This document shows, one piece after another, positions 17,718-58,891 of a stretch of DNA of 64,000 nt. The position numbers and the translations under genes are program-made. The notes below the pieces were generated by a model. That model was not told the DNA's origin. It saw nothing but the letters and a program-made list of their open reading frames with translations, and made no database searches. Source of the DNA: an uncultured Methylomirabilota bacterium (lineage in GTDB: Bacteria > Methylomirabilota > Methylomirabilia > Methylomirabilales > 2-02-FULL-66-22); the NCBI GenBank assembly GCA_963845565.1, contig CAWJSJ010000002.1, forward strand, positions 704,001-768,000, read 5' to 3'. Numbering within the stretch: position 1 is the stretch's first letter; each line of letters begins with the position of its first letter.

Positions 17718-18708
17718 ATGCGGACGCACCCAACGATGAACTCAGGTATCCCATGTCTGACGGGGGCGTGGAGGCCGATCGGGCTCCTGCTCGGCCTCGC
17801 CGGGCTGGTGCTGATCGCCGGCCTGTGCCTCGGGGCACAGGGCGAGGCCGCCGCCCCGGCGGTTCCCGGGGCAACCTTTGTGGGGAGCGAGACCTGCAAG
17901 GGGTGTCATGAGGATCAGTTCAAGAAACTGGACGCCACCCTGCACAGCCGCGTGCTCGGGGAGCGGGGCCGGACTGCGCTGCAGCAACAGGCGTGCGAGT
18001 CCTGCCACGGCCCGGGGAGCAAACACCTGGAGGACCAGACGAATCCGGCGTATAGCGTCCGGTTCGGGCCGAAAGTCCGTGCAGTCCGTCGCAGATCGCA
18101 ATGCCGTCTGCCTGCAGTGCCACCAGAAAGGCAAGCGCGCATTCTGGCAGGGAAGCACCCATGAGACGCGAGACGTCTCTTGCACGACTTGCCACAGTGT
18201 CAAGAGCCCGAAGTCGCTGAAGGCCCAATTGGCGGCGCCGGACCAGCTCGCGCTGTGCAAGCAGTGCCACGTGGTGAGTGTCGGCCAGCAGGCGAACTGG
18301 TCGCACATGCCAGTGCGCGAAGGGAAAATGCAGTGCTCGAGCTGTCACAACGTGCACGGGACGGTCACCGAGAAGCTGATCGTGGACAACAGCATCAACG
18401 AAAACTGCTATCGCTGCCATACGGATAAGCGGGGACCGTTCCTGTGGGAGCACGCCCCCGTGCGTGAGAGCTGCATGAACTGCCATAAACCGCACGGCAG
18501 CAACAACATCCGGCTGCTCAGGCTCCGCGAGCCCCGACTCTGCCAGCAGTGCCACAACGAGAACCGGCACCCGTCCACGGCGTTCTCCGGGGGCAGCACC
18601 GGGCTCGGCGGGATCGCCGACCGGCGGGTGCTGGGGCGAAGCTGCGCACTCTGCCACTCGAACATCCACGGGTCGAACCATCCGTCCGGGTTCGCCTTCA
18701 CGCGATAG
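17718..18708 (+). CDS. Decaheme cytochrome c, DmsE/MtrA/MtoA/PioA family (apparent +1 frameshift at ~18073)
   Basis: 2 CxxCH in the first frame + 8 in the second = 10; GPFLWEHAPVRESCMNCH..HGS and IHGSNHPSG family motifs. Confidence 0.88.
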
Positions 18709-18722
18709 GGGGAGGCGTCGTG

Positions 18723-21020
18723 ATGCGATACGGAATTCGTCCTCTGTCTGGGCTGATGCGGCGATTGCCCACGGTGTTCGTGCTGGGGATAATGCTGGTA
18801 GTCGGAGGACTCGGCCTGTGGCCCCGGCCGGCCCCTGCCGGAGAACCGAGTGCCGGCGCGGCGTGGAAAGACGGACTGCCTTTCAATTTGAACGGGGAGA
18901 TCGAGGCGGGGTGGCAGTACGTCTATAAGTCGGAAAACTCCGCGACCTTCAATGAATACCGGGATCTGAATACCGGTTTCATCATGCCGAGCTTCCGAAT
19001 CCTGGGAGAGGACAAAGCTCGCCGCGGATTTTGGGAGATGGGCGGGACTCGCCTGACACAGACGGATGCCAACTACTACGCGAACGCGGGAATCTACAAC
19101 TGGTTCAGGTTTGACTTCGAATACGACCGAATCCCGCATGTCCTCGCCAACAACGCCCAGACCATCTACGCCGAGGCCGCGCCCGGCCTCTTCTTCATCA
19201 ACGGGTCCGTCGCCCAGACCGCCCAGCTCCAAACCGCGCTGAACGCCGCGATCTCGACCCCACCCACCGCGGCCCAACGACTCAACATTATCAACGCGGT
19301 GAACAGCCTCCTGCAGCCGACCCCGCTCCGTTTCCAGACCGACACCGCCAGGTTCGGCCTCAACTGGCTTCCCCTGCCCGACCTGGAGCTCGCGGCCGGA
19401 TACTCGTACGCGACGCGCGAGGGGAAGATCCCTCTCGGGACCGTCATCGGCTCTCCCGGGAGCAACGTGCTGGAGCTGGCCATCCCGCGGGACGAGCGGA
19501 TTCACGAGATCAAATTCGGCGCCGATTACATCCGGAACTGGTATCAGCTCCGTTTCAACTATACCTACTCGCTCTTCGAGAACGAGGTGAACCGGATCGA
19601 GTGGCAAAACCCGTGCGGCACGGGTCCCTCCTGCGGCAACCCCTCCGGGCTGGGTCGCTACTCCACGATGCCGGAGAATTATGCCAACACGCTCTCCGGA
19701 GCCGGGGCCGTCACGCTGCCCTGGTGGGCAACCCGGCTGACCGGGGCACTGTCCTACAGCATGTGGCGGCAGAACGAGACCTTTTTGCCGTACACGACGG
19801 TCCCGGGATATACCGGCAACACGAGCGATGCCGGGGCGAACAGCCCCGACGCCAGCATGAACGTGTTGCTCGTGAATCTTGGGCTGACCGCCCGCCCGCT
19901 CCGGGACGTGACCATTGCGGCCCGGTATCGCATGTACGACCTGGAGAACGATACGCCGGTACAAACCTTCACGAATATCCTCAATCCGGGCGATCTCACG
20001 CCGGCGAGCACCAACAACACTCACACCAGCGAACCCTACGCGTTCCGCAGACAGAACGCGGGCGGGGACGTGTCGTGGCGGATTGCCAAACCCATCACAC
20101 TGCGCGCCGGATACGAGTACGTGCAGTGGAACCGGAAAGACCGGGAGACCGCCAGTACCCATGAGAATATCGGCAAAGCGGTGATGGACGTCCAGCCCTG
20201 GTCGTGGCTGCTGGCCCGCCTCCAATACTCACACGGCGTCCGGGTCATCAACGGAACATACGAGCCGCTGGGCGGAAACGCCACCGCACTCCCGCAATTC
20301 CGGAAGTTCGATCAGGCGGACCGTACCCAGGACAAGGGCGATGTCCTGTTGCAGATCACTCCCATCGACACCCTGACCCTGAGCGGGTCGTTCTATATCG
20401 CAAATGACAACTACTTTAACACCACGTACGGCGTGAATGGCGTGCAGGCACTCGGCTATTCCTTCGACGCGTCGTGGGCGCCCCTGGAGCGGCTCAATCT
20501 TTACGCCGGATGGGTCCACGATCTCTACAAATCGAATCAGCAGAACTGCGCTATCGCCGCGGGGCCACCGACGCCCTGCGACCCGCTGAACAGCTTTGTC
20601 GTGGATCCTCAGGACATGTTGGACGTGGTCCGCGCCGGCGTTAACGTCGTCGTCATCCCGAGCGTACTCGATCTCAGCCTTGGCTATTCGTACTCCTTCG
20701 GGCGAAGCAAATACTCGTTCTCAAGCACTCCGGGTGGTGCGGCGACCGGCGAACCCGCGTCTGTGCCCGAGGTGGAGAACAAGTTCAACATTTTCAACGT
20801 GGTGGCACGCTACTTCATCAACAAGGAGTGGACTCTGAAGCTCGGGTTCCAGTACGAGCGGTACGACGAAAAGGACTTCACGACCGACACGATCCAACCG
20901 TCGGTGGCTGCCGTCCCCGGAACGACCGCCGCGGCGGATCTGCGATCCATCGTGCTCGGCGCGAAGCACCCTTCCTACTCGAATTACATTATGGCGCTGT
21001 CGTTGGCGTATCGGTTCTAG
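18723..21020 (+). CDS. MtrB/PioB family outer-membrane beta-barrel
   Basis: Signal peptide, FNEYRDL, RKFDQADR, alternating beta strands, C-terminal aromatic (AYRF); directly after the decaheme gene. Confidence 0.85.
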   Translation: MRYGIRPLSGLMRRLPTVFVLGIMLVVGGLGLWPRPAPAGEPSAGAAWKDGLPFNLNGEIEAGWQYVYKSENSATFNEYRDLNTGFIMPSFRILGEDKARRGFWEMGGTRLTQTDANYYANAGIYNWFRFDFEYDRIPHVLANNAQTIYAEAAPGLFFINGSVAQTAQLQTALNAAISTPPTAAQRLNIINAVNSLLQPTPLRFQTDTARFGLNWLPLPDLELAAGYSYATREGKIPLGTVIGSPGSNVLELAIPRDERIHEIKFGADYIRNWYQLRFNYTYSLFENEVNRIEWQNPCGTGPSCGNPSGLGRYSTMPENYANTLSGAGAVTLPWWATRLTGALSYSMWRQNETFLPYTTVPGYTGNTSDAGANSPDASMNVLLVNLGLTARPLRDVTIAARYRMYDLENDTPVQTFTNILNPGDLTPASTNNTHTSEPYAFRRQNAGGDVSWRIAKPITLRAGYEYVQWNRKDRETASTHENIGKAVMDVQPWSWLLARLQYSHGVRVINGTYEPLGGNATALPQFRKFDQADRTQDKGDVLLQITPIDTLTLSGSFYIANDNYFNTTYGVNGVQALGYSFDASWAPLERLNLYAGWVHDLYKSNQQNCAIAAGPPTPCDPLNSFVVDPQDMLDVVRAGVNVVVIPSVLDLSLGYSYSFGRSKYSFSSTPGGAATGEPASVPEVENKFNIFNVVARYFINKEWTLKLGFQYERYDEKDFTTDTIQPSVAAVPGTTAAADLRSIVLGAKHPSYSNYIMALSLAYRF

Positions 21021-23126: not shown

Positions 23127-23283
23127 ACGCCAAGCAGGCTTTTCGGCGGCCTGATCGGCGAGCCGAGTCAATATCTTCCGCCCTGGAATTGCGCGAGTGC
23201 GAAACCAGGGCGGTTTTTTGTGCCGCCCTTCTGGAAGGCGACCAGGTGTCATGCTATAGTGCCAGACGGAGGGAGGGGTGGGC

Positions 23284-23577
23284 ATGATCTCGATGAGTGC
23301 CCCGGCACGGCGGGAGTTCGAGGAATTGCGACGGGCAGGCAAGCCACGCCTCGGCATTCAGGTCGGTTTCATCTATGGGTGCGGCGGCGCGGGGTTCCGC
23401 GTCGTGTTCACCGAGGAGCCGGCCGGGGTCTCCCGCCTGGAGATCGAGGGAATCCCGATCGGGCTGGATGCCGAGAGTCGGGAGCGGCTGCGCGGCGCCG
23501 TGATCGATTGGGAAGAGAGCCCTGAGCGAGGCTTCGTCCTTCGGCATCCGGACGCCGCGCTGGTGGAATTCTGCTGA
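23284..23577 (+). CDS. HesB/IscA-like (A-type Fe-S carrier-like) protein
   Basis: GCGGAGF, LRGAVIDW..GFVL, terminal Cys. Confidence 0.65.
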   Translation: MISMSAPARREFEELRRAGKPRLGIQVGFIYGCGGAGFRVVFTEEPAGVSRLEIEGIPIGLDAESRERLRGAVIDWEESPERGFVLRHPDAALVEFC

Positions 23578-24411: not shown

Positions 24412-24453
24412 CCCCCACAGGCAGAGCTGCAGGCTCTGCCTGTGGGGGTTTGT
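24412..24453 (+). terminator. Intrinsic terminator
   Basis: CCCCCACAGGCAGAGC-TGCAG-GCTCTGCCTGTGGGGG-TTTGT. Confidence 0.7.
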
Positions 24454-24521: not shown

Positions 24522-24580
24522 TTGACGGAACTGCAGACTTGTAACAGATTATGGGTGTTCCGGTCAGACCACCTTACCAT
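24522..24580 (+). promoter_or_regulatory. AT-rich promoter with a FadR-type operator
   Basis: TTGACG -35 after an A tract; GGTCAGACCACCTTACCA resembles FadR/PdhR/LldR GGT-N3-ACC boxes; upstream of a FadR gene. Confidence 0.5.
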
Positions 24581-24691
24581 CTCACCACAATTTCTTTCTT
24601 TGGAGTCTTCATTAGCCGTCGGACACTGATCGATATCGGGACCCAAGGGTAGCTGCTGACCCAGTTGTGCGCGATCCGCCGGAGGTGTTTT

Positions 24692-25470
24692 GTGGAATCG
24701 GTGAGTCGCAGGGCGTTCCGGGTTGTTCGGAAGACGCGGGTCTCCGAAGAGATCGTCGGACAGGTTCGCGACCTCATCACGTCCGGCCGCCTGAAGGTCG
24801 GGGACCGGCTCCCCGCAGAGCGGGAACTTGCCACGGTCCTCGGGGTGGGCCGATCCACCGTCCGAGAGGCCATTCGGGCTCTGGAATCGCTCGGGATCCT
24901 CGAGGCCCGACCCGGCGAAGGCACCTTCCTGGTTTCCAACCCCGCCGACGCACAGCCCGACCCCATCACCGCCAACGCATTCAAGTCCTGGGAAAATCAG
25001 CGCAAGCTCTTCGAGGTCCGGATGGTCATCGAGCCGGACCTGGCGGCACTGGCCGCCCGCCGCGCCTCGTTTGAGCAGATCCTGAAGATGCGGGACGTCC
25101 TCCGGGAACAAGAAACATCCGTCCGGCAGGGAGAAACCGGCATCAAGGCCGACTCGACGTTCCATTTTCTCATGGCGGAGGCCGCCGGGAACGAGATCCT
25201 GCTCCGCATCATGGACAGCCTGATGGATCTCCTGCGGGAGACGCGCGAGACGAGCTTGCAGGCCAGCGGCCGCTCGATCCGTTCCCTGAAGCAGCACAAG
25301 GCGCTCCTGCGCGCCATCGAGACCCGGGATCCCGCCGCCGCGGAGCGCCACATGCGCGAGCACATCACCGAAATGGAAAAACTGGTCTTCTCGACCCAGG
25401 AGTGGCCGGTGGGATCGACCGTCGAATCCGCTCCGCCCCGCCACTTTCCAGGGTGGGAGAATCTGCGTGA
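24692..25470 (+). CDS. GntR/FadR-family transcriptional regulator (3' end inferred; probable 1-bp indel ~25430-25450)
   Basis: GDRLPAERELA..GVGRSTVREA HTH and FCD domain; TGA at 25468 overlaps the GTG of the next gene. Confidence 0.85.
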
Positions 25471-27587
25471 ACGAGGTGGCATCGGAAGAGCGAAAATTCA
25501 AGGTCGCCGAGGCGTTCCTCGAGGACGTCGGCAAGGGGTACGCCCGCATGGATGCGGACGACCTGATCAAGCTGCGCGCCGCCCCGGGGGACGTGCTCTT
25601 GATCACGGGGCGTCGCCCCACGGTGGCGCGGGCGGTCCAGGCGCCCCCGAGTCACTGCGGCCAGTATCTGATCATGATGGACGGGACCACGCGCAACAAC
25701 GCGCAGGCCGGCGTGGACGAGTTCGTCACCGTCAAGAAGGTCCCCTTCAAGGCGGCCAATTCGGTCCTGCTGTCGCCAGTCCAGGCGAATCAGAGCGCCC
25801 CCACCGAGGAGGAGATCCCGCACATCCGGCAGCTCTTGCTCGGGCTTCCCGTCATCATCGGGGACAGCCTCCAGATCACGTTCCTGGGGTCGCGACCTCG
25901 GTCGTTCACGGTCGACGGCTCGAATCCGCGCGGTGCGGTCCTTATCTCCAACGACACCGTGATCGCCTTCCGTCCGCCCGAGGTGTCGGCGGAAAAAGCC
26001 TACCGCATTTCCTACGAGGACATCGGCGGCCTGGATCGGGAGGTCTCGCTGGTCCGGGAGATGGTCGAGCTGCCCTTGAAGTTTCCCCAGCTTTTCGGCA
26101 TGCTCGGCATCGATCCGCCGAGGGGCGTCCTGCTCACCGGACCTCCCGGCACGGGCAAGACGCTCATCGCCCGGGCCGTCTCCCACGAGGTGCGGGCCCA
26201 CTTCATCCATATCAACGGGCCCGAGGTCATCCACAAGTTCTATGGTGAGAGCGAAGCCAAGTTACGCCAGGTCTTCGAAGAGGCCCAACGGAACGCCCCC
26301 AGCATCATCTTCCTGGACGAGATCGACGCCCTGGCGCCCAAGCGCTCCGTGGTGGTGGGGGACGTGGAGAAGCGGGTAGTGGCCCAGTTGCTCGCCCTCA
26401 TGGATGGCCTGGTGGAGCGGGGCGAGGTGATGGTGATCGGGGCCACCAACATGCCGGACCTGGTGGACCCGGCCCTCCGGCGCCCTGGTCGGTTCGATCG
26501 CGAGATCACCATCGGCGTCCCGGGGCGCGAGGGGCGACGGCACATCCTGGGCATCCACTCGCGCCGGATGCCGCTGGCGTCGGACGTGGACCTGGACCAG
26601 TTGGCGGACATCACCCATGGGTACGTCGGCGCCGATCTGGCCGTCCTCTGCAAGGAGGCCGGAATGGTGGCCCTGCGCCGGCTGCTGCCCCAGGTGCGGT
26701 TCGAAGTGGACGGCAAGCCCGAACTGGACAATGTCAAGGCCCGGATCGTCCTCGACGACTTCATGGCGGCCTTCAAGGTCGTCGCGCCCACCGCCACGCG
26801 GGAGTTCCTGGCCGAGCGGCCGCGGATGACCCTCAAGGATGTGGGCGGCCTTGCCGAGACCAAGCGCACCTTGCTCTCCATCGTGCAGCTTTTCCGCGGG
26901 GGCGGTGCCCTGGTCGGTCACACCCGGTTCAGCCCGCCGAAGGGGATCCTCCTCACCGGTCCATCGGGGACCGGCAAGACCATCCTGGCCCGGGCCTTGG
27001 CCGGGGAGATGGGGCTCACCCTGATAACAGTGGATCAGCCGAGCCTGCTTTCCAAGTGGGTCGGCGAGTCGGAGAAGGGGTTGCGCGAGGTCTTCAAGCG
27101 GGCAAAGCAGGCCTCGCCCTGTATCCTCTTCTTCGACGAGATCGAATCCCTGGTCCCGGTCCGGTCCGCCCTGGAGGCCGGCAGTCTCTTCTCCCGTCTG
27201 GTCAGCCAGCTTTTCCGGGAACTGGACGACCTGCACGGGTCGCTGGGCGTGGTCGTCCTGGGAGCCACCAATCGGCCCGACATGATGGAGCCCGCACTCC
27301 TGCGGGCGGGCCGCTTCGACTACGTCCTGGAGCTGCCGCTTCCGACGCGGGACGAGCGGCGGGAGATCCTGGCCATCCAGACCGAGGGCCTGCCCCTCAC
27401 CGATGACGTGAACCTGGCGGAACTGGCGGACGCCACGGGCGGATGGACCGGGGCGGATCTGGAGCTGGTCTGCAAGAAGGCGGCGATCCTGGCGCTGGAG
27501 GAGTATCGTAACCGGCCGTCCGAGACCTTCCGCCTGACCGCGCGGCATCTTGCGGACGCCCGGGCGCAGGTGAAAACCATGAAATAG
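25467..27587 (+). CDS. CDC48/VCP/VAT-family double AAA+ ATPase
   Basis: N-domain (DVGKGYARMD), SYEDIGGL, GPPGTGKT/FLDEID, ALRRPGRFDRE, GPSGTGKT/FFDEIE, KWVGESEK. Confidence 0.92.
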   Translation: MNEVASEERKFKVAEAFLEDVGKGYARMDADDLIKLRAAPGDVLLITGRRPTVARAVQAPPSHCGQYLIMMDGTTRNNAQAGVDEFVTVKKVPFKAANSVLLSPVQANQSAPTEEEIPHIRQLLLGLPVIIGDSLQITFLGSRPRSFTVDGSNPRGAVLISNDTVIAFRPPEVSAEKAYRISYEDIGGLDREVSLVREMVELPLKFPQLFGMLGIDPPRGVLLTGPPGTGKTLIARAVSHEVRAHFIHINGPEVIHKFYGESEAKLRQVFEEAQRNAPSIIFLDEIDALAPKRSVVVGDVEKRVVAQLLALMDGLVERGEVMVIGATNMPDLVDPALRRPGRFDREITIGVPGREGRRHILGIHSRRMPLASDVDLDQLADITHGYVGADLAVLCKEAGMVALRRLLPQVRFEVDGKPELDNVKARIVLDDFMAAFKVVAPTATREFLAERPRMTLKDVGGLAETKRTLLSIVQLFRGGGALVGHTRFSPPKGILLTGPSGTGKTILARALAGEMGLTLITVDQPSLLSKWVGESEKGLREVFKRAKQASPCILFFDEIESLVPVRSALEAGSLFSRLVSQLFRELDDLHGSLGVVVLGATNRPDMMEPALLRAGRFDYVLELPLPTRDERREILAIQTEGLPLTDDVNLAELADATGGWTGADLELVCKKAAILALEEYRNRPSETFRLTARHLADARAQVKTMK

Positions 27588-27689
27588 TCCCGCGAGCGGG
27601 ACGATCGGAAGGAGGTGACGGCAGACTCGCGGTGCAACGCGAGATCCGGTGGAGGCGAGGTTAATAACTAGCAGGTCAAGGAGGGACTC

Positions 27690-28295
27690 ATGGCAAGTAT
27701 CAAACAGATCACGGTATGGGCTCGAGGCGTCATTCAGGATAAGGAAGGACGCGATATCTCTAATGGCATCGCGGCGGCCGCAGGTTTCGAGGGCAAGTTT
27801 AACCAGTCGTTCGACAACTACGTGGATCTTCCGGATCGGGTGAACGTCCCCCTGCGGAAGTACGCGCGGATCAGCGACGAGGAGATCGAGGAGCGGTACG
27901 AGTACGAGAACCTGCATCCGGAAATCGTCATTCTGGCGGATGCCACCATCGCGAAGGGGATGAACGTCCTGCTCGGGATGCAAAAAGGCGGCACGCTGTT
28001 GGTCAACACCAACCGGGCGCCTGAAGACATCCTGAAGTTCATCCCGAACAAGGACCTGCTGAAGCAGATCGTCTGCGTGGACGCCAACGCCATCTGCGGC
28101 GTTCAGACGGTGGACTTCTCCGGCTCCGAGGGCGGCGTGGACATGCTGGGTATGGGCTCGGGCGTCGCGGCCCCCATCCTGGGCGCGCTCGTCAAAGCCA
28201 CCAGTGTGGTGAAGCTCGAGAGCCTTGCCAAGGTGGTCAAGAACAGCGAGGCCATGTACAAGGGGTACGATCAGGCGAAGGTGAAGACCCTGTAG
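27690..28295 (+). CDS. Oxalate oxidoreductase-like 2-oxoacid:ferredoxin oxidoreductase, gamma-domain subunit
   Basis: KQITVWARGV, NYVDLPDR, YARIS, SGSEGG; matches my recollection of the Moorella OOR gamma domain. Confidence 0.8.
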   Translation: MASIKQITVWARGVIQDKEGRDISNGIAAAAGFEGKFNQSFDNYVDLPDRVNVPLRKYARISDEEIEERYEYENLHPEIVILADATIAKGMNVLLGMQKGGTLLVNTNRAPEDILKFIPNKDLLKQIVCVDANAICGVQTVDFSGSEGGVDMLGMGSGVAAPILGALVKATSVVKLESLAKVVKNSEAMYKGYDQAKVKTL

Positions 28296-28327
28296 GGACG
28301 GGGTCCATTTCAAGAGGAGGTTAGGCG

Positions 28328-28660
28328 ATGCCGCATTTCAAGATCCCGAAGGAAAAAGAGGTGCCCCTCGGTTGTATCACGCCGGCGCCGGTTGGCGAGC
28401 AGCCCATGATGATCACGGGCAACTGGCGGATCTATCGGCCGGTGCTCGACCCCGAGAAGTGCAACCTGTGCATGAGCTGTATCATCTTCTGCCCGGACGC
28501 CTGCTGGCAGCTCAACGCGGAAGAGGACGAGCCGGTGTGGAACGCGAAGTATTGCAAGGGTTGCGCGATCTGTGTCAACGAGTGCACCTCTGGCGCACTG
28601 ACCAGGGCCTATGAGCTGGATTTCGAGGACGGCGTGGTCCGACTGGAAAAACCGTTCTAA
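28328..28660 (+). CDS. OOR-like delta (2x[4Fe-4S]) subunit
   Basis: TGNWRIYRP, CNLCMSCIIFCPD, YCKGCAICVNECTSGAL, ELDFED. Confidence 0.85.
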   Translation: MPHFKIPKEKEVPLGCITPAPVGEQPMMITGNWRIYRPVLDPEKCNLCMSCIIFCPDACWQLNAEEDEPVWNAKYCKGCAICVNECTSGALTRAYELDFEDGVVRLEKPF

Positions 28661-28673
28661 GGAGGGAGTTCCC

Positions 28674-30971
<2,298 letters not shown>

Positions 30972-31052
30972 AGCCGGTTCCTGGTCACGTCGGGAGGGCA
31001 TGCGAGTTCCTGAGCAGGTAAGCATTGCGCACCCGAGACGGTTGGACAACTG

Positions 31053-31119
31053 GGGCAGAGGGGTCTCTCGGTCGTCCGGAAGAGCGGACGGGCGAGGTAC
31101 GACCCCTCTGCCCTTTTTT
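31053..31119 (+). terminator. Intrinsic terminator after the OOR operon
   Basis: GGGCAGAGGGGTC...GACCCCTCTGCCC followed by a T run. Confidence 0.7.
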
Positions 31120-31387
31120 GATGTGCGCCCCGCACGCCGGACGCGGGCCTGGGCATGGGGCGGCGCGGCGGTCGTTTCCGTCTCGGCGAGAGGCGGAGAG
31201 GCGGGATGCATCCTGGTGACGAAAACCGCAACCCTGGGCGTCTGATTCGGCGGAATCGCCCAGTGCGTTGATGTACTCTTGCTTTATCGGGCTCATGGTA
31301 TCGAGAACCCCGGTGGACATCTCGATGCCGTCGCTGTGGGCGCCAATGAAGACGCCCAGGCACTAACATCCGGGGCGGAGGGAACCC

Positions 31388-32390
31388 ATGAACAGACAGT
31401 GGGGACCGACAGCGTGGCGGCGGATGCTGGTCATCGCTCTGGCTCTTGGGATCGCCGGGCTATGGAGCGGAACGGCGCGCCGCGGCCTGGGAGCCGACCA
31501 AGCCGGTGGAGTTCAACGTGCCGCCGGCACCGGGGGCGGGGCCGACATCATGGCCCGCTTCATTTCCCCGCTCTTCCAGAAGAACAAAATCACGGACAAG
31601 CCATTTATCGTGACCAACCGGTCGGGCGGTGCGGGAGCGGAGGGCTTCCTGCACGTGAAGGGCAAGGCGGGCGACGACCATACGATCGTCATCACCCTGG
31701 ACAACCTCTTCACGACGCCGCTAGCGACGGGCATACCCTTCAACTGGAAAGACCTCACCCCGATCAGCCGGCTGGCCCTCGACTACTTCGTCCTCTGGGT
31801 GAACGCCGAGAGCCCGTACAAGACGGCCAAGGAGTACTTCGACGCCGTCAAGAAGGAGCCCGGCAAGTTCAAGATGGCCGGGACCGGGACCAAGCAGGAG
31901 GACCAGATCGTCACCGTCCAGTTGGAGCAGGCGTTCGGCGTCGAAGTGGGCCTACGTGCCCTTCAAGGGCGGCGGCGAGGTGTGCGTGGAGTTGGTGGGC
32001 AAGCATGTGGATTCCACCGTGAACAACCCCTCCGAGTGCCGTGAGCCACTGGCGGGCGGGGAAGGTGCGCCCGCTGGCGGTGATCGACCACGAGCGAATC
32101 CCGTTGCCCATGTGGGATCAGATCCCGACCCTGAAAGAGGCCACGGGCATCGATATCAGCTACCTGATGTTGCGCGGCATCTTCGCGGCGCCCAAGATCA
32201 AGAAGGAAGTCCAGGACGGGTACGTCGCACTCTTCAAGAAGGTGACGAAACCGAGGACTACAAGAAGTACCTGAAGGACAACGCCCTCAAGGGCGCCTTC
32301 CAGTCCGGCCCAGAGTTCGTGAACTGGGTCGAGGAGCAGGACACGCTCCACAAGACGTTGATGGAAAAAGGCGGAATGATGAAGCAGTAA
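31388..32390 (+). CDS. tctC: Tripartite tricarboxylate transporter substrate-binding protein TctC (several frameshifts)
   Basis: WEPTKPVEFNV/AGTGGGADIMAR, NRSGGAG, PFKGGGE, PTLKE across frames. Confidence 0.8.
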
Positions 32391-32520
32391 GCTTCTGTGC
32401 AGATAGGGCGTGACCGGCTTCGGATAGCGACCGAGCGGGGCCACGCGAACCGTGCAGCGTCTCCGGGGGGCGATGCGTCTCCCCGGAGACGCACGCTGTT
32501 GTGCTGAACGAGGAGAAGCC

Positions 32521-33002
32521 ATGACCTATAAGATGGCCGATCTCATGATCGCGGGCATCCTCTTATGACTTGGCGTCCTTGTCGTCGCGGATTCGTTTCG
32601 ACTCGGAAGCGGTTGGGGGATGGAAGGGCCCAAAGCCGGGTTCTTCCCGTTTTTCATGGCCGCGATCGCTGTGGTCGGTTGCGTGGTGGTCGTCGGCAGG
32701 CCATGAAAGGGACGTCCTCCGTGAAGGGCAACAAACCGTTCGTGCCTTCCGGCGGAATGAAGCCGGTCCTCACGGTGTTCGTCCCGGCCTGTGGGATGAT
32801 CCTTGCTGACCGAGGTCGTCGGATTGTATGTCGCGGCGATGATCTATCTCGCGGGCTACATCAGGATCGTCGGCGAATACCGCTGGAGGACCGTGCTGCT
32901 CGTCAGCATCCCCATTCCCCTGATCTTCTACTGGGTGTTCGAGAAGATCTTCCTCATTCCGATGCCTGCGGGGATGTTCGGGCGCAGATCCTTCGATTCT
33001 GA
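32521..33002 (+). CDS. tctB: TTT small permease TctB (frameshifted)
   Basis: GPKAGFFPF, four hydrophobic segments, VFEKIFLIPMPAG. Confidence 0.7.
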
Positions 33003-33023
33003 GCGGAAAGGAGTCATCCAGCC

Positions 33024-34551
33024 ATGGACATCCTTACCAACCTGACGTTCGGGCTCAAGGTCGCCGGCGAGCCCTATAATCTCATGGTCGCCGCCGCCGG
33101 GCTCATCCTCGGCGTCATCGTCGGCGTCCTGCCGGGGCTCGGCGGGGCCAACGGCTGCGCCATCCTGATCCCCGTGACCTTCGTCATGCCTCCGGTGGCG
33201 GCCGTGATCCTGCTCTCCTGCCTCTACTGGGGGTCGCTCTACGGAGGCTGCCATCTGCTCGATCCTCTTCAACATTCCCGGCGAGCCGTGGGCGGTGGCC
33301 ACCACCTTCGACGGCTATCCCATGGCCAAGAAGGGCCAGGCCGGACTGGCGCTCAGTGCCGCGTTCTTCGCGCATTTTGTGCGGCGCCGTTCTTGGCACG
33401 ATCGCTCTTGACGTTCTTCGCGCCCGTGCTGGCCGCCTTTGCCCTGCGCTTCGGCCCGCCGGAGGTCTTCGCGGTCATGCTCCTCACCTTCAGCGCCTTC
33501 GTCGGTCTGGTGGGAAAGTCGCCCATCAAGACGCTGGTCGCGACCGCCTTCGGATTCATCATGGCCTCGGTGGGCATCGACATCGTCAGCGGCGAGCTGC
33601 GCCTGACCTTCGGGTCCTGACGGCCCTGATGGGCGGCTTCAGCTTCATCGTCGCGGTCATCGGCCTCTTCGGCATCGGCGAGATCTTCCAGACCGTCGAG
33701 GAGGGCCTCAAGATCGAGGGGGTCAAGGCTACCGGATGCAATGGGAGCGACATCATCGACACCTTCAGAGACATGGCGACGGTACCGGAAGAACCTGCTC
33801 CTGAGCTCCATCGTCGGCTGCTGGATGGGCTTCAAGCCCGGCGGCGCCACGCCGGCCTCGTTCATGGCCTATGGCTTCGCCAAGGGGGCGCCGGAAAAGA
33901 AGAGGACGAGTACGGCAAGGGCCACGTTGCGGGCATCCTCTCGCCCGAGGTCGGCGGCGCACGGCGCCGGCACCTCGGCCATGCTTCCCATGATCACGCT
34001 GGGCATTCCCGGGGTCTCCCACGGCGGCGGTCATCATCGGCGGCCTGATGATCTGGGGCCTCCAGCCGGGCCCGATGCTCTTCAAGGACAACCCGGATTT
34101 CGTCTGGGGAATGATCGCCAGCACCTGGTACGCGAATATCCTCGGCCTGCGTCGTCGTCGTCGCGTTCGCGCCCGCTGTTCGCGTCGGTCCTCCGGATTC
34201 CGTTCGCGATCCTGATGCCCCTCCTGATCTTCATCTGCGCCATCGGCGCCTATGCGGTCAACAACCGGATGATCGACATCTGGTACATGATGCTCTTCGG
34301 GATCATCGGCTATTTCGTTCAAGAAGCTGAACTACACCATGGCCCCCATGCTGCTGGCGCTGGTGCTGGGCGACATGGCGGAATCGGCGCTGCGGCAAGG
34401 CCTGATCATGTCCCAGGGGTCGCTCTTGATCTTCCTCCGCCCGCCGATTACGCTGCCGCTGCGTCATCGGGGCAGCCGTGATCGGATTCTGGCCGCTGAT
34501 CCAGGCCACTAAGGCGTCGCCCCGACGGAACGGCAGGAGTGCCGCGGCTGA
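33024..34551 (+). CDS. tctA: TTT large permease TctA (many frameshifts; end approximate)
   Basis: GVLPGLG, ILFNIPGE, TTFDGYPMAKKG, FGPPE, PMITLGIPG, GLQPGP fragments. Confidence 0.8.
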
Positions 34552-34803: not shown

Positions 34804-35841
34804 GTGAATACCCATACCGTGTTTTGGTTCTCGTTTGTAGCGGTGTATGTGATCGTGTTCTTCATCGACATGTACGTCACCAGCCACCGCCAGGGAGAGA
34901 TTTCAGTGGGCGCGGCGCTGCGCTGGACCGCGCTCTGGATGTCGATTGCGCTCTTGTATGGCGGCGCGATTTATCTGTTTTATCCGCAAAATCCCGGCAG
35001 TACCGTCAACACGGCCACGGAAATCACGATCAAGTACATCGCCGGTTATCTGACCGAATACTCGCTCTCCGTCGACAACCTCTTCGTGTTCATCATGATC
35101 TTCTCGTTGATGGGGGTCCATGAGAAGAACCAGCCCCGCCTGCTCAAGCTGGGCATTCTGCTGTCCATCGTCCTCAGGATCCTGTTCATCCTGGTGGGCA
35201 TGGGGCTGGTGCAGCGGTTCGGCTGGATCCTCTATGTCTTCGGGGCGCTCCTGATCTGGACGGCCTGGAAGATGGCCTTTACGGCCGAAGACGACCATGT
35301 GGACCCGAAGAACAATATCCTGTACAAGCAAGCCTCGAAGATGTTCCCGGTGGATCCCGACCCTCACACGCCGAGATTCTTCACCAAGATCGACGGGAAG
35401 ATCCACATCACCAGCGTGTTGCTCGTTTTTCTTGTGATTGGATCCACCGACGTGCTATTTGCCATTGATTCCATCCCGGCCATCATCGGGGTCATCAAAG
35501 AAGGCGCGTCGAACGTCCTCACGCTTGAAGAGGAGAACTTCATCGCCATCACCTCGAACGTGTTCGCCGTGATGGGGCTGGTCTCGCTGTTCTTCGGCCT
35601 CAAGGGCATCATGGGCATGTTCCGCTACCTGAAGCACGGCGTCAGCTTCATCCTGTTCTTCATCGGGGTGAAGATGATGCTGGGCTTCGTCCCGGCCGTC
35701 GAGCACTTCTTCAAGGCTCATTCCTGGGTGTCGCTGGCCGTGATCGTGGCCACCCTCGCGATGTCCGTGGTGCTGTCGGCGATCATCAAGGAAGAGGTGG
35801 ACGAGGCGGTAAAAGCCGAAAAGGCGACCTCGTCCCACTAG
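34804..35841 (+). CDS. TerC/Alx-family integral membrane protein
   Basis: EYSLSVDNLFVF, DVLFAIDSIPA, TSNVFAVMGL, FRYLK. Confidence 0.9.
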   Translation: MNTHTVFWFSFVAVYVIVFFIDMYVTSHRQGEISVGAALRWTALWMSIALLYGGAIYLFYPQNPGSTVNTATEITIKYIAGYLTEYSLSVDNLFVFIMIFSLMGVHEKNQPRLLKLGILLSIVLRILFILVGMGLVQRFGWILYVFGALLIWTAWKMAFTAEDDHVDPKNNILYKQASKMFPVDPDPHTPRFFTKIDGKIHITSVLLVFLVIGSTDVLFAIDSIPAIIGVIKEGASNVLTLEEENFIAITSNVFAVMGLVSLFFGLKGIMGMFRYLKHGVSFILFFIGVKMMLGFVPAVEHFFKAHSWVSLAVIVATLAMSVVLSAIIKEEVDEAVKAEKATSSH

Positions 35842-35888: not shown

Positions 35889-36839
35889 ATGCGCATTCTG
35901 GTGACCGGCGGGAACGGGAGTGTGGGGCAGGGGTTGATCCCGCATCTGCTCGACCGCGGACACCACGTCGTGGTGCTGGATACCGAGCTGGGGGCGGTAC
36001 GAGCGATCGCCCACCCCCAGTTCGCCGTGGTGTCCGGCGGTGTCGAAGACGCGGCCGCGGTGGCCGCGGCAACGCGCGGGGTCGAGGCGATCATCCATCT
36101 CGCCTGGTCGTTCTCGGACGATCCCCTTCACCTCTTGGAGCATGACCTACGGGGCCACGCGTTGCTCCTGGGGGCGGTGCGCGACCAGGGGGTGCGCCAC
36201 TTCATCTACACCAGCACCGCGGTCGTGTACGGGAAACCGGTCCGCACCCCGATTGACGAGGAGCATCCGCTCCGGGTGCTGGACGCCCGCAAGCCCACCT
36301 ACGGGATAGCCAAAGAGTTCGCTGAGAAGTTGACAATCCTCGCCGCGCGGGATACGGCGCTCTCCGCCACGATCCTGCGATTTTGGTGGGCCTTCGGGGA
36401 CGAGATCGGCGGCAGACATCTGCGCGACATGCTCAAGACGGCGGCCTCCGGACAGCCCGTCCGGGTGCCGGCCGATTGCGGCGGAAGCTTTCTCAGCCAG
36501 GAAGATTTCAACCAGGCGGTCGAGACGATTCTCTTCATGCCCGCGACCGGCGGGCGCGTCTTCAACCTCGCCAGTGCCTACGTGACCTGGGAAGAGGTCG
36601 CCCGCATGGTCGTGAAGGTCACCGGAGGAAAGAGCGCGGTCGAAGTGGTGCCGCGCGAGGCCTGGACCGGCGCCGCCTTCTTGGCGGACCGGTGGGAGCT
36701 GACCGATCAACGGATACGGACAGCCGTAGGTTTCAAGCCAAGCCACGATACCGCCGAAGTCCGGGAGGCCCTCGGTCGGGCCATCGCCGGTACCTGGGAA
36801 CGACTTCGTTCTCGGGATGCCGCCTCCCGGACCAGGTGA
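35889..36839 (+). CDS. NAD-dependent epimerase/dehydratase
   Basis: VTGGNGSVG, HLA, SSTAVVYG-like, YGIAK. Confidence 0.88.
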   Translation: MRILVTGGNGSVGQGLIPHLLDRGHHVVVLDTELGAVRAIAHPQFAVVSGGVEDAAAVAAATRGVEAIIHLAWSFSDDPLHLLEHDLRGHALLLGAVRDQGVRHFIYTSTAVVYGKPVRTPIDEEHPLRVLDARKPTYGIAKEFAEKLTILAARDTALSATILRFWWAFGDEIGGRHLRDMLKTAASGQPVRVPADCGGSFLSQEDFNQAVETILFMPATGGRVFNLASAYVTWEEVARMVVKVTGGKSAVEVVPREAWTGAAFLADRWELTDQRIRTAVGFKPSHDTAEVREALGRAIAGTWERLRSRDAASRTR

Positions 36840-36957: not shown

Positions 36958-38430
36958 ATGGAGGACTACTAGCGGGAGGATTGTTCCTCTTGGCGTGTGT
37001 CGTGGCGCCGCTCTGGTGGGCCGAGGAGGCCGCAGCGCAAGGCCGGCCGGCCCTGCCGGCCTTCGCAGGCGCCAAAGAGGGGGGCAGTGTGCATCGGCTG
37101 TCACAGCCGAATGAACAATGCGATGGTATACGAGTGGCGGGCGTCTCGGATGGGGCAAAAGGGAGTCAACTGCTTTGATTGCCATCGCGCGGAGAAAGGG
37201 GACCCCGACGCCTTCGAGCACAACGGTTTTCTCATCTCCGTCATCGTCTCTCCAAAGGATTGCGGCCGTTGCCACCAGAAGCAAGTCGACGAGCAAAAGG
37301 GAAGCCACCACGCCAAGGGCGGTCAGATCCTGGCCTCCATTGACAATTACTTGGGAGAGGTCGTGGGCGGACCCCCCGCCGTGGCCGTCGGCTGCATGCA
37401 ATGCCACGGATCGGAAATCAAGGTCCTGCCGGGCGGGAAGTTCGATCCGGCCACCTGGCCAAACAGCGGGATCGGCCGTATCAATCCCGACGGGAGCTGG
37501 GGGAGTTGCACGGCGTGCCATACGCGCCACCGATTCTCGGTGGAACAGGCCCGCCGCCCCGACGCCTGCGGCAAGTGCCACCTTGGGCCGGACCACCCTC
37601 AGATGGAAGTGTACAAGGAATCCAAGCACGGGATCCTGTACGAGGCGTTTCGAGATAAGCTGAACATGGATCGCCCCAGCTGGGTTGTGGGGAAGGATTA
37701 CACCACGGCGCCGACCTGCTCCACCTGTCACATGAGCGCCACACCGACCCAGGGCGCGACCCACGACGTTGGGGAACGGATCAGCTGGACACTCCGGCCG
37801 GCGATCTCGACTAAACTCAACATGGTGATCTACGAGGACCTGTGGAAAGAGGATCTGCCGGAAGGTGCCGCCCTGCCGAAGAAGGGAGAGGACGTCAAGG
37901 CGAAGGATGGGAAGACGCGGAAGGTCAAGGACGTCCTCACCTGGAAGCAACGGCGCGACCGCATGCAAGATGTCTGTTCGAGCTGTCATGCCGGCGGGCA
38001 GGTTGCAGGCTTCTACAAACAGTTCGACGAACTGGTGGAGCTGTATAACGACAAATTCGCCAAACCGGCCACGGCGATCATGAACGAGCTGTACCAGGCG
38101 AAAAAGCTGACGGCGGTCCCCATGGACGAGAAGCTGGAGTGGACCTACTGGGAGCTCTGGCACCACGAGGGTCGGCGGGCGCGGCACGGCGCCTCCATGT
38201 CCGGCCCGGACTACGCCTGGTGGCACGGCATCTACGACGTGGCCAAGAACTTTTACACCCACTTCATCCCGGAGGTGAAGCAGGTGGCGGGCGAGCCGCT
38301 GGCGACGCAGTTGCTCAACAAGCATGTCTATTCCCAGCCCGGCCACAAATGGGTGAAAGAGGGAATGACCAAGGAGCAATTGCAGCAGATCCAGGAGTTC
38401 TACCGCCAACGGTACGGCACGCAGAAATAG
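36958..38430 (+). CDS. Octaheme hydroxylamine-oxidoreductase-family cytochrome c (indels ~36961 and ~37080 in the signal region)
   Basis: 8 CxxCH; CTACHTRHRFS, CGKCHLGPDHPQ.E.Y.ESKHG, HHEGRRARHGASMSGPDYAWWHG. Confidence 0.85.
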
Positions 38431-39461: not shown

Positions 39462-43034
<3,573 letters not shown>

Positions 43035-54716: not shown

Positions 54717-55175
54717 ATGTGCCCCGTGAAATCGTGGCAGCGGGTCTCCGGGATCGTGCTCCTGCTCGTTTCGGGAGTGGTGATCCAGCAATCGGTGTGG
54801 GTCCTCCGCCTCTTCGATCATGGCCAGCCAGGCTCCGGCTTCATGCCCTTCGGCCTCGGGGTGATTCTTGCGGTGCTGGCCTCCTTGATCATCCTCACGA
54901 ATCTGGGCCCTGATGAGAAGCGCGTTTCGTTCTGGCAGCCGAAGGCGTGGCTCCGCCCACTCCTCTCCCTCGTCATCATGGCAGCCTACGTGATCGCCTT
55001 CGACGATCTGGGGGCGGTGACGAGTGTCGTGATCCTCGTCACGGCCTGGCTGCTCCTCCTGGAGAAGAAGCCGGTGTGGGTGGCCGCCCTCACCGGGGTT
55101 GCCACAGGCCTCGTGGTATATGTCGTCTTCGAGCGACTGCTCATGACCCCGTTCCCCAGAGGGTTGCTCTTCTAG
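54717..55175 (+). CDS. tctB: TTT small permease TctB
   Basis: PGSGFMP, 4 TM, VFERLLMTPFPRG. Confidence 0.85.
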   Translation: MCPVKSWQRVSGIVLLLVSGVVIQQSVWVLRLFDHGQPGSGFMPFGLGVILAVLASLIILTNLGPDEKRVSFWQPKAWLRPLLSLVIMAAYVIAFDDLGAVTSVVILVTAWLLLLEKKPVWVAALTGVATGLVVYVVFERLLMTPFPRGLLF

Positions 55176-55204
55176 ACGGTACACCGCACAAAGGACGCGC
55201 ATCG

Positions 55205-56704
55205 ATGTTCGATTTCGCCGGCCTCCTGCAAGGGTTCCAGATCGCCCTCAGTCCGGTCAATCTCCTCTGGTGTCTCATCGGGTCCGTCCTCGGCACCGCG
55301 GTGGGGGTTCTGCCCGGGCTGGGCCCCGCGGCGACCATCGCCTTGTTGCTGCCGATCAGCATGAAGATGGGGTCGCCGATCACCGCCATCATCCTGATGT
55401 CCGGCATCTTCTACGGGGCCATGTACGGGGGCTCCACCACGTCGATCCTGCTCAACATTCCCGGCGAAGCGGCCTCGGTCGTTACCTGCATCGACGGCTA
55501 CCAGATGGCCAGGAAGGGGCGCGCGGGGGCGGCCCTGGGCGTCGCCGCCATTGGGTCGTTCATCGCCGGGACGGTCGGCGTCATCGGCTTGACCATGATG
55601 GCGCCCCCTCTGGCGGAGTTCGCCCTGAAGTTCGGCCCGCCCGAGTACGTGGCCCTCACGGTATTGGGCCTGCTGCTGGCCACGTATCTGGCGGGGGCGT
55701 CACCCCTCCGGGGTCTGACCATGGCGATCATGGGGCTGATCCTGGGATCGGTCGGCCTGGATCCGCTGTCCGGCGCGGTGCGCTTCGATTTCGGCGTTCC
55801 CGACCTGCAGAGCAACATCGACTTCGTGACCATCGCCATGGGGCTGTTCGGGGTGGGGGAGATCCTGATCAGTCTGGAACAATCAGAGGCCGCCAGCATC
55901 CTGACCACCAAGATCAAGAACGTGTTCCCGACGATGGCCGATCTCGCCCGGAGCGGGTGGGCCATGTTCCGCGGCTCGGTCATCGGCTTCCTGGTCGGCA
56001 TCCTGCCCGGCGGCGGCGCGGTTCTCTCGTCGTTGATCTCCTACGCCGTCGAGAAGAAAGTATCGAAGCACCCCGAGGAGTTCGGGCATGGAGCTATCGA
56101 GGGGGTCGCGGGGCCCGAGGCGGCCAATAACTCGGCCGCGTCGTCGTCGTTTATTCCCCTCCTGACCCTCGGTATCCCGGGAAACGCCTCGACGGCGATG
56201 ATCTTCGCCGCTCTGCTGATCCACGGGATCACGCCTGGGCCGTTCCTCCTCAAGGAGCACGCGCCGGTCTTCTGGGGCGTCGTCGCCTCCATGTACATCG
56301 GCAACGTCATGCTGCTGGTCTTGAATCTTCCCCTGGTCGGCATGTGGGCTCAGCTCCTCAAGGTGCCCTACGCCTTCATGGCTCCCATGATCATGATCCT
56401 CACCCTGGTCGGCGTGTACAGCGTCAACAACAGCGTGTTCGACATCTGGGTCATGCTGATCATGGGGGTCTTTGGGTACCTGGCGCGCAAACTGCAGTTC
56501 GACCTGGGGCCCCTCCTCTTGGCCTTCGTCCTTGGGCCCATCATGGAGCGATCGCTCCGCCAGGCGCTCCTCATGAGCCACGGATCGTTCGGCATCTTCT
56601 TCACCCGGCCGATCTCGGGCGTGCTGCTGGGCGTGGCCGTCCTGTTCGTCCTGGGGAACCTGGTGGCGGCATTCCGGGCCAAGCAGAAAGTGGCGGCCGC
56701 GTGA
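55205..56704 (+). CDS. tctA: TTT large permease TctA
   Basis: GVLPGLGP, YGAMYGGSTTSILLNIPGE, GPEAANN, LTLGIPG. Confidence 0.95.
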   Translation: MFDFAGLLQGFQIALSPVNLLWCLIGSVLGTAVGVLPGLGPAATIALLLPISMKMGSPITAIILMSGIFYGAMYGGSTTSILLNIPGEAASVVTCIDGYQMARKGRAGAALGVAAIGSFIAGTVGVIGLTMMAPPLAEFALKFGPPEYVALTVLGLLLATYLAGASPLRGLTMAIMGLILGSVGLDPLSGAVRFDFGVPDLQSNIDFVTIAMGLFGVGEILISLEQSEAASILTTKIKNVFPTMADLARSGWAMFRGSVIGFLVGILPGGGAVLSSLISYAVEKKVSKHPEEFGHGAIEGVAGPEAANNSAASSSFIPLLTLGIPGNASTAMIFAALLIHGITPGPFLLKEHAPVFWGVVASMYIGNVMLLVLNLPLVGMWAQLLKVPYAFMAPMIMILTLVGVYSVNNSVFDIWVMLIMGVFGYLARKLQFDLGPLLLAFVLGPIMERSLRQALLMSHGSFGIFFTRPISGVLLGVAVLFVLGNLVAAFRAKQKVAAA

Positions 56705-56791
56705 AGAATGCGGTGGCCGGAGGCGTCCAATCGCGGGGAGCATCAGGCGTCCCGCAACCCTGAAACCTTTAACTGTACGGGGGGTGTGATC

Positions 56792-57760
56792 ATGAAACGA
56801 GCGATGTGGAGTCTTGCCCTCGTCGCTTTCGCGATCGTGGGAATCGCCACGACCGCGATGGCGGCCTATCCGGACAAACCCATTCAGTTGATCGTACCCT
56901 ACTCGGCCGGCGGTTCCACCGACGTGCTGGCGCGGGCCATCGGCCAGGTGGCGCCCCGCTTCTTCCCGCAGCCGGTGGTGATCGTGAACAAGGCCGGCGG
57001 CGGCGGGATTCCCGGCCGGGTGGACGTGGCGAAGTCCCGGCCGGACGGCTACACCTTGCTCTTCGGCTGGGGCTCGGGCGAGGACCTGGTGGTGCCTCAC
57101 CAGCGCGCCCTGCCGTACGACATCTTCAAGGATTTCGAGACCGTCTGCCGGATGTCCGTCCACTCCATCGTTCTGGCGGTTCCGGCCAGCGCGCCCCACA
57201 AGACTCTGGCCGACCTGGTGAAGTGGGCCAAGGCGAATGAGCCCGTCACCGCGACGGTCTCGACCAAGGGCGGATCGGTCGATATCACCCTCCTCCTCTT
57301 CGCCAAGGCGGCGGGCTTCAAGCTCACGACGGTCCCGGGTTCCGGCGGAGCGGATGCCATCACCAAGCTCGTGGGCGGCCACGTGCCGTTCGGCGGCCAG
57401 CACCCAAGCGAGGTGCTGCCGCACTTCAAGGCCGATCGTCTGCGTGGTCTGGCCGTGGCCTTCGACAAGCGCGACCCCTCGGTGCCGGAGATCCCCACCT
57501 TCAAGGAGTTCGGCTACGACGTGGTGACGGCCGGCTCGGTGAAGGGTGTGGCGGTCCCGAAGGGCACGCCGAAGGAGATCACCACCTACCTCGAGAAGAA
57601 GTTCAAGGAGATCGCCGACGACGCCGAGTTCCAGAAGATCATGAAGGACCTCGGGCAGCCGGTGATGTACCAGACGGCCGCAGAGTACACGACCTGGTTC
57701 AAGGCGGCCTACGATCAATACGGGCAGTTGATCAAGAGCCTGGGGATCGAGGCCAAATAG
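56792..57760 (+). CDS. tctC: TctC substrate-binding protein, paralog 1
   Basis: YPDKPIQLIVPYSAGGSTD, PDGYTL, PTFKE. Confidence 0.92.
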   Translation: MKRAMWSLALVAFAIVGIATTAMAAYPDKPIQLIVPYSAGGSTDVLARAIGQVAPRFFPQPVVIVNKAGGGGIPGRVDVAKSRPDGYTLLFGWGSGEDLVVPHQRALPYDIFKDFETVCRMSVHSIVLAVPASAPHKTLADLVKWAKANEPVTATVSTKGGSVDITLLLFAKAAGFKLTTVPGSGGADAITKLVGGHVPFGGQHPSEVLPHFKADRLRGLAVAFDKRDPSVPEIPTFKEFGYDVVTAGSVKGVAVPKGTPKEITTYLEKKFKEIADDAEFQKIMKDLGQPVMYQTAAEYTTWFKAAYDQYGQLIKSLGIEAK

Positions 57761-57812
57761 TCCCACGCTGCATGATCGGGGGAGGGAAGCCCGCTTCCCC
57801 GGATGGTCTGGC

Positions 57813-57853
57813 GGCAATCGGGCCACCCGCTGTCGGGTGGCCCGATTGCCTTT
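57813..57853 (+). terminator. Intergenic hairpin
   Basis: GGCAATCGGGCCACCCG-CTGT-CGGGTGGCCCGATTGCC-TTT. Confidence 0.6.
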
Positions 57854-57892
57854 CGGGTTCGCCGGTGAGTGTCAGGTGGAGGTGAAATCGTC

Positions 57893-58864: not shown

Positions 58865-58891
58865 AGGGAATTCACAAGAGGAGGACGGCCG

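Follow-up and report, generated by a model that had tools for sequence, protein, structure and literature searches.

The window considered here, the whole stretch of 64,000 nucleotides that was analyzed (contig CAWJSJ010000002.1, positions 704,001 to 768,000), comes from the genome (G000) of an uncultured bacterium whose nearest named relatives are Ca. Methylomirabilota/Methylomirabilales records. It contains a candidate operon for the oxidation of oxalate, in which a FadR-type regulator, a Cdc48 ATPase, the gamma, delta, alpha, and beta subunits of an enzyme resembling the oxalate oxidoreductase (OOR) of Moorella thermoacetica, a tripartite tricarboxylate transporter (TTT; tctCBA), a TerC-family protein, and an extended short-chain dehydrogenase/reductase (SDR) are encoded in that order on the + strand. 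Genes for a multihaem cytochrome, a thioredoxin-like protein, a single-chain pyruvate:ferredoxin oxidoreductase (PFOR), and a DHOD-like protein follow on the same strand. The principal features are these.

24522..24550, + strand: promoter-like TTGACG-N17-CAGATT with a weak -10, recognized by eye
24562..24570, no strand: palindrome GGTCAGACC, the likely (predicted) operator of the FadR-type regulator, an instance of the GGTCnGACC conserved upstream of the operon
~24692..25470, + strand: FadR-subfamily GntR regulator (GntR and FCD domains), with an indel in the tail; start inferred from the ribosome-binding site
25467..27587, + strand: Cdc48/VAT-type AAA+ ATPase (N-D1-D2) of 706 amino acids, with both ATPase sites and the aromatic pore loops intact
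27690..28295, + strand: OOR gamma (domain III), with the Glu154 loop kept and WARGVIQDK where PorC has GRGGQG
28328..28660, + strand: OOR delta (domain V), with two [4Fe-4S] motifs; a gene of its own, with a ribosome-binding site before it
28674..29872, + strand: OOR alpha (domains I-II), with R31 (YPIRP), E59, R109, D116, F117, and Q211, and with single-base indels
29952..30971, + strand: OOR beta (domain VI), with the GDG...N motif that binds thiamine pyrophosphate (TPP) and four proximal-cluster Cys
31388..32390, + strand: TctC periplasmic binding protein, with indels
32521..33002, + strand: TctB small membrane subunit, with indels
33024..34551, + strand: TctA large membrane subunit, with many indels
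34804..35841, + strand: TerC/Alx-family membrane protein; many relatives have a TerC-family gene at this position
35889..36839, + strand: OOR-associated extended SDR of a discrete, uncharacterized family, with GxxGxxG, D31, T110-Y138-K142, invariant R134-K135-P136, and W166-W167
39462..43034, + strand: single-chain PFOR (YPITP), close behind the SDR in several genus relatives

A strong hairpin (24412-24448) lies between the operon and an upstream gene for a short-chain dehydrogenase. A scan for consensus promoters found none at the head of the operon, and the promoter-like sequence was not among its listings. The first-pass annotation had delimited a catabolic island at 24522..34551. The genes it listed are indeed present, but the conserved unit does not end there, continuing instead to the TerC and SDR genes, and the word "island" overstates the case: the GC content of the operon is that of the rest of the window, and the operon occurs in 17 of 20 genus relatives. 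Cdc48 had been named without being given a role, and the SDR had been missed.

The predicted oxalate oxidoreductase

Each of the four subunits has the crystallized OOR (PDB 5c4i) as its best solved relative (E values of 2e-154 for beta, 7e-103 and 1.5e-27 for the two pieces of alpha, 1e-59 for gamma, and 7e-27 for delta), and the next match, the PFOR 9bt4, is far behind. Likewise, the NCBIfam models for OOR rank first for the OOR subunits, with the PFOR/VOR models scoring far lower. Gamma exceeds its cut-off (NF045790, 245.7 versus 230), and alpha, scored as two pieces, reaches 107 and 405 against a cut-off of 500. In a relative with intact frames (L016), both alpha (601 versus 500) and beta (599.5 versus 590) are over the equivalog cut-offs.

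The active site tells the same story. As the first-pass annotation had read it, alpha has YPIRP (codons at 28755-28769) where the PFOR at 39462 has YPITP, and it has a second motif, of 12 residues, from 28994 on. Alpha retains R31, R109, and D116, in addition to E59, F117, and Q211. The excerpt of PMC5020499 that we consulted names Arg31 of YPIRP, Arg109, and Asp116 as features of OOR and states that coenzyme A (CoA) is not needed, in keeping with what the annotation had said of the Arg and the Asp; YPIRP by itself is not diagnostic, however, being shared by a sister clade described below. The gamma subunit of the window retains Glu154, as do 93 of 94 aligned relatives, and in it WARGVIQDK replaces the HGRGGQG of PorC-type subunits from the same order, with loss of the GxGGQG motif. 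The roles of the Glu154 loop and of the loss of GxGGQG are reportedly those set out by Gibson (2015/2016) and Chen (2018). The TPP motif is present, the ligand cysteines for three [4Fe-4S] clusters are all kept, and neither the YPITP nor the GxGGQG motif of four-subunit PFOR/VOR enzymes is found in the OOR genes of the window. At all the active-site positions checked and at the cluster cysteines, alignment to the M. thermoacetica enzyme reveals identity.

A quick tree of beta subunits (53 of 119 rows, with SH-aLRT support and no bootstrap) placed the window protein in a clade of 37 rows (SH-aLRT 99), apart from both the YPIRP sister clade and the YPITP enzymes. The same clade holds G126, a genome found by searching the phylum to which G061, a Bacillota record, belongs (301 genomes). 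G126 carries a near-identical copy of the crystallized OOR: its beta matches 5c4i_C over the stretches displayed, there are a few differences in alpha, and an in-frame stop interrupts gamma-delta. Gamma and delta are more commonly split, as in the window, than fused (45 versus 12 among the ORFs matched).

The profile scores, active-site residues, tree, and shared synteny together support the view that the four genes are orthologues of those for the M. thermoacetica OOR, as the first-pass annotation had proposed. The predicted enzyme thereby adds one more member to a family for which NCBI already has models. Two points count against the reading of the genes as an oxalate-catabolic operon: beta falls 7 bits short of its NCBIfam cut-off (582.8 versus 590), and the family has a single characterized member, so that others could differ in substrate. 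That the genes might instead encode an ordinary CoA-dependent enzyme of the PFOR/VOR type would agree with the order gamma-delta-alpha-beta, which four-subunit PFORs share (PMC13768988, in the portion consulted), but we give this hardly any credence in view of the low PFOR/VOR scores, the replacement of GRGGQG, the presence of R31, the separation from YPITP enzymes in the tree, and the existence of a bona fide PFOR at 39462.

The sister clade, also from Methylomirabilales (L166:2071-8760 of G014, L167, L171, and L172), keeps YPIRP, R109, F117, and Q211 but has Ala at the position of Asp116 and a fused gamma-delta. Its loci have a GntR gene upstream and, downstream, either an oxalate/formate antiporter that passes TIGR04259 (L166) or a TTT. 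It may be another enzyme of the oxalate type.

When compared with the closest relative (L013), alpha, tctC, tctB, tctA, and the tail of the FadR gene contain single-base indels. Contigs from runs X1 and/or X2 are without the extra base at 28883, 28957, 29502, 29532, 29539, 33951, 34006, and 34317 and carry one added base at 32246, so that the length seen in relatives is restored at nine places among the rows listed; these rows represent part of the breaks, 40 further rows lying outside the check, and for runs X18 and X5 these differences were not listed at those rows. Because the X1 and/or X2 contigs restore the relatives' length, the frameshifts in alpha and the transporter genes are probably assembly errors. 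The RNA runs X1 and X18 have contigs that span the operon, although contigs cannot show transcription. It seems very improbable that the operon is decaying in G000: the assembly does show alpha and the tct genes as broken, and the gamma-delta of G126 bears a stop too, but the same extra bases are missing from contigs of near-identical strains, the breaks are single-base with compensating sets within alpha, and similar breakage is seen elsewhere in the G000 assembly.

Predicted operator, predicted importer, and host

The palindrome GGTCnGACC was found within 350 bp upstream of the operon at 24 of 69 loci, the window included, as against 0.36 expected from shuffled sequences and none in 69 coding controls; among the 69 loci scanned, it is absent from those of Bacillota. 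We take it to resemble the operators of the FadR family. It is likely, judging from this conservation, that the FadR-type protein represses the operon at GGTCAGACC, and the earlier claim that the operon has its own regulator gains support accordingly. The window has three more such palindromes (38465, 46754, and 55712), the first of which immediately precedes the thioredoxin-like gene and the PFOR gene.

TctA, TctB, and TctC were all identified, as expected from the earlier claim of a dedicated importer; oxalate as its substrate is a prediction suggested by relatives that have an oxalate/formate antiporter in the same slot. Across loci, the slot after beta is filled by a TTT, a major facilitator superfamily (MFS) protein, a lactate permease, or a CitMHS or TauE carrier, and the MFS protein in the slot at L147 is over the cut-off of TIGR04259, the model for the oxalate/formate antiporter. 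The TTT likely imports oxalate. Positions 54729-59812 hold another TTT system, in which there is more than one copy, indeed several, of tctC. Genes of the gamma-glutamyltransferase family stand beside OOR at 15 of 80 loci (among them L058-L062, L077, L078, L080, and L082); considered as oxamate hydrolases, they gave only generic gamma-glutamyltransferase matches.

Of the 20 genus relatives, 16 have beta at an identity of at least 72%, as does one of the 40 genomes examined from the rest of the order, and gamma-delta-alpha genes were found at contig ends in G002 and G022, bringing the genus relatives with OOR to 17 of 20. The genus in which OOR is thus near-core was detected in sediment and wetland runs. 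OOR occurs as well in Myxococcota, Thermodesulfobacteriota, Nitrospirota, Pseudomonadota, Chloroflexota, and Bacillota.

Acetyl-CoA synthase (ACS) is present in only two of the 20 genus relatives, which indicates that OOR in this genus mostly does not serve acetogenesis. G000 itself has a carbon monoxide dehydrogenase (CODH)/ACS cluster (C2:491000-503000; L111), heavily frameshifted and beside corrinoid and UroD-like genes, and no gene for formyltetrahydrofolate synthetase (FTHFS) was found in the genome. A Moorella-type acetogen was rejected as a description of the host on these two grounds. Genes of the haem-copper oxidase family are present in G000, and matches to NiFe-hydrogenase are partial, covering only about 80 N-terminal positions. 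No narG was found in any of five genomes searched, G000 among them, and no oxalyl-CoA decarboxylase scored over the cut-off in G000. The PFOR gene is closely behind the SDR gene in L013, L014, L115, L120, L122, L123, and L125.

Elsewhere in the window are an MtrB/PioB-type porin (18549-21020) and the multihaem cytochrome c (36997-38430), the latter not found at the corresponding place in L013. A small ORF (23278-23577) with a CGG motif, HesB-like by eye and without a Pfam match, precedes the upstream short-chain dehydrogenase gene, as it does in L013, L118, and L121.

The Cdc48 and SDR partners

The interest of the operon lies in the partners of the enzyme, Cdc48 and the SDR, which travel with OOR across several phyla, the enzyme itself being of a known kind. 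Cdc48 accompanies OOR at 66 of the 72 loci having at least 5.5 kb of upstream sequence (75 of 100 loci overall), that of G126 included. Among 301 Bacillota genomes, the Cdc48 N domain is present in 24 of the 26 that have OOR, and the six other carriers have it in gas-vesicle clusters. All 74 OOR-linked copies retain the Walker A motif, the pore loop, and the Arg finger of D1, D2 being more variable. The protein encoded at 25467..27587 is the only full-length Cdc48 in its genome; it has an N domain and two intact AAA rings and scores 763 against the TIGR01243 cut-off of 802.65.

Why should an oxalate-oxidizing enzyme be paired with an unfoldase? A CoA-free enzyme cannot discharge the acyl-thiamine adduct formed from pyruvate, and on this ground we suggest that Cdc48 is a dedicated remodeller that would open OOR for the loading or exchange of its cofactor, a role that we favor, if only by a little. 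According to the title of one paper, OOR undergoes suicide inactivation by pyruvate, and the idea of a reactivase rests on this inactivation.

A less probable alternative is that Cdc48 serves quality control in general, as an ATPase co-regulated with an abundant and oxygen-labile enzyme and feeding, for example, a 20S proteasome. Proteasome subunits are indeed present in G000 and three relatives, close homologues of Cdc48 (46-54% identity) serve gas-vesicle clusters, and some genomes have OOR without Cdc48. But the HbYX tail used for docking to the proteasome is absent from all 79 Cdc48 C-termini, that of the window among them; G126 has the Cdc48-OOR pair with a single match to the proteasome family and no alpha/beta pair; and all 30 Bacillota genomes with the N domain have either OOR (24) or the gas-vesicle location (6). 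Moreover, Betaproteobacteria retain Cdc48 after rearrangement of the locus, and their copy groups with those of Methylomirabilota, as do their beta subunits.

Other observations speak against a strict requirement for Cdc48. It is not indispensable, as it was found neither in five of five OOR genomes chosen for loci lacking it nor at any of the four loci of the YPIRP sister clade. With midpoint rooting, gas-vesicle copies fall among the OOR-linked ones in the Cdc48 tree, so that the latter form no clade under that rooting. The co-occurrence counts include kin and are not independent, and OOR-linked members were the source of profiles A1 and A2. A complex predicted for the Cdc48 N domain and the gamma, delta, and beta subunits (alpha left out) scored 0.27 against a mark of 0.32, which speaks neither for nor against binding, and the co-divergence of the N domain with OOR subunits (Spearman 0.62-0.67, versus 0.70-0.79 among the subunits) cannot be separated from kinship and was set aside as evidence.

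All 11 non-OOR bacterial Cdc48 loci fetched (L177-L181 and L193-L198) appear to be gas-vesicle clusters, with GvpA/N/L-like genes by eye and Hsp20- and ArsA-like genes. In L020, L035, and L079, which are of the Betaproteobacteria type, OOR is followed by a second, YPITP-type 2-oxoacid:ferredoxin oxidoreductase, a DHODB-like iron-sulfur protein, and then Cdc48, and L020 has a LysR gene in place of FadR.

The SDR belongs to a discrete family, which comprises 958 of 8000 proteins scored (E value of 1e-40 or better). In this family the triad is intact, several Trp are invariant, and so is the Arg-Lys-Pro that precedes the catalytic Tyr. OOR is present in 33 of 36 genomes that carry it (13 of 14 in Bacillota, 15 of 17 in Methylomirabilales, and all 5 in the phylum of G064), and in the last phylum the SDR is in none of the other 345 genomes, which lack OOR. 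The G126 locus has it too, at 44% identity, together with GntR, Cdc48, OOR, and MFS genes. A database label of UDP-glucose 4-epimerase (GalE) was rejected (TIGR01179, 77 versus 262 bits; Trp replaces the Asn of R-x-x-N), structure and Atlas searches gave only generic epimerase-fold matches, and none of the solved structures listed exceeds 25% identity. Locus L114 (G023:C12) has an N-terminal remnant of Cdc48, TerC, and the SDR but no OOR genes, an apparent loss of OOR with retention of the SDR.

A connection to thiamine is suggested by thiE, thiG-like, or thi4 genes within 600 bp of the SDR gene in L040, L160, L161, L190, L191, and L192; the label thiG is assigned in part from the position next to thiH. 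All three Bacillota copies of the SDR gene that lie away from OOR contigs have thiamine-synthesis genes as neighbors. Such genes are present at 10 of 100 OOR loci (one of them weak) and at none of 22 control loci, with about 1-3 expected by chance from the four thi sites in the 5.4 Mb of G000, and several of the thiamine-linked loci are kin. On the other side, the SDR is present at only 34 of 67 loci having at least 6 kb of downstream sequence, and the detached Methylomirabilales copies L114, L117, and L119 have no thiamine genes nearby; the link may reflect no more than a demand for thiamine. Recycling of a thiamine derivative is a tentative assignment; that the SDR removes an inhibitory 2-oxoacid or supplies substrate is somewhat more plausible, though still short of even odds, and it may have some other function altogether.

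The supply of substrate bears on what OOR oxidizes. Hydroxy- and dicarboxylic acids are what TTT carriers and FadR regulators are often devoted to. The enzyme could oxidize another small 2-oxoacid here (glyoxylate, mesoxalate, or a compound derived from oxamate), made by the SDR from an imported hydroxy-acid, and both the varied transporter slot and the invariant Arg-Lys beside the catalytic Tyr of the SDR would fit. We consider this improbable: every active-site position checked equals that of the characterized enzyme, the SDR is encoded even beside the near-identical copy of the crystallized enzyme, and half of the well-covered OOR loci are without it.

A proposed pathway and its known counterparts

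Taking the genes, residues, tree, synteny, and co-occurrence as what is observed, and deducing every activity from them, we think it quite probable that the operon is oxalate-catabolic. Oxalate would be imported by the TTT, and the FadR-type protein, until then a repressor at its operator, would be released when the inducer is present. OOR would oxidize oxalate to two molecules of CO2 on TPP without CoA, and the electrons would pass through three iron-sulfur clusters to ferredoxin and from there, in most of the genus, to respiration, a hydrogenase (as H2), or reductive use by the neighboring PFOR rather than to acetogenesis. Cdc48 may open OOR to load or exchange its cofactor, and the SDR may handle a released thiamine derivative or an inhibitory 2-oxoacid. 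A more specific scheme, which we regard as doubtful, is a repair of the thiamine cofactor dedicated to OOR, in which Cdc48 would open OOR trapped by pyruvate or another 2-oxoacid in a dead-end thiamine adduct and the SDR would recycle the thiamine derivative released. If true, it would give a thiamine enzyme its activase and a bacterial Cdc48 its task, in the service of an anaerobic oxalate sink invisible to surveys based on oxc and frc. Since the near-identical copy of the crystallized enzyme has both genes beside it, a cultured organism and an established assay are at hand for finding out what they do.

Surveys of oxalotrophy omit OOR; it is near-core in a Methylomirabilales genus and mostly uncoupled from acetogenesis there. 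The parts consulted of a 2024 review (PMC13409138) list oxdC, oxc, frc, oxlT, odc, and oxo as markers and use "oxidoreductase" once, for oxalate oxidase, and a gut survey explicitly excluded OOR (PMC8062136, from an excerpt). An accessory module of Cdc48 and SDR was not found in print, though Pierce 2010 may mention a neighboring ATPase. New here is the OOR-linked SDR; the conserved GGTCnGACC operator and the YPIRP sister clade without Asp116 or Cdc48 were observed besides.

The proposed logic for Cdc48, in which an ATPase would release or insert the cofactor of a single enzyme, has precedents in Rubisco activase and diol dehydratase reactivase. Another is the unfoldase-assisted cofactor exchange of ClpX on ALA synthase (PMC10743472, as excerpted); in the literature searched, we found no such exchange for a thiamine enzyme. 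These ATPases belong to other families and serve other cofactors, so that the likeness is one of analogy and not of membership. By architecture (N-D1-D2), Walker motifs, pore loops, and Arg fingers, the window protein resembles VAT of Thermoplasma and Cdc48-p97 (PDB 5g4f) but is bacterial, is encoded in a metabolic operon, and has neither an HbYX tail nor a described substrate. The SDR shares with extended SDRs such as GalE-like epimerases (e.g., PDB 8rdg) the fold (TM about 0.78), the NAD-type Rossmann motif, and the Ser/Thr-Tyr-Lys triad and differs from them in its identity of at most 25% to the structures listed, in the invariant Trp in place of the Asn of R-x-x-N, and in a context in which no sugar-nucleotide genes were seen.

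The closest counterpart is the OOR of M. thermoacetica (5C4I/5EXD/5EXE; NF045790-NF045792), with which the window enzyme shares all domains, R31, R109, D116, the E154 loop, and the cluster cysteines, an identity of 50-72% to the near-identical copy of G126, and neighbors that encode a GntR regulator, Cdc48, a transporter, and the SDR. It differs in having separate genes for gamma and delta, which are fused in 5c4i; a TTT importer in place of an MFS protein; a FadR regulator with a GGTCnGACC operator absent from Bacillota loci; and a host that lacks FTHFS, 18 of whose 20 genus relatives lack ACS.

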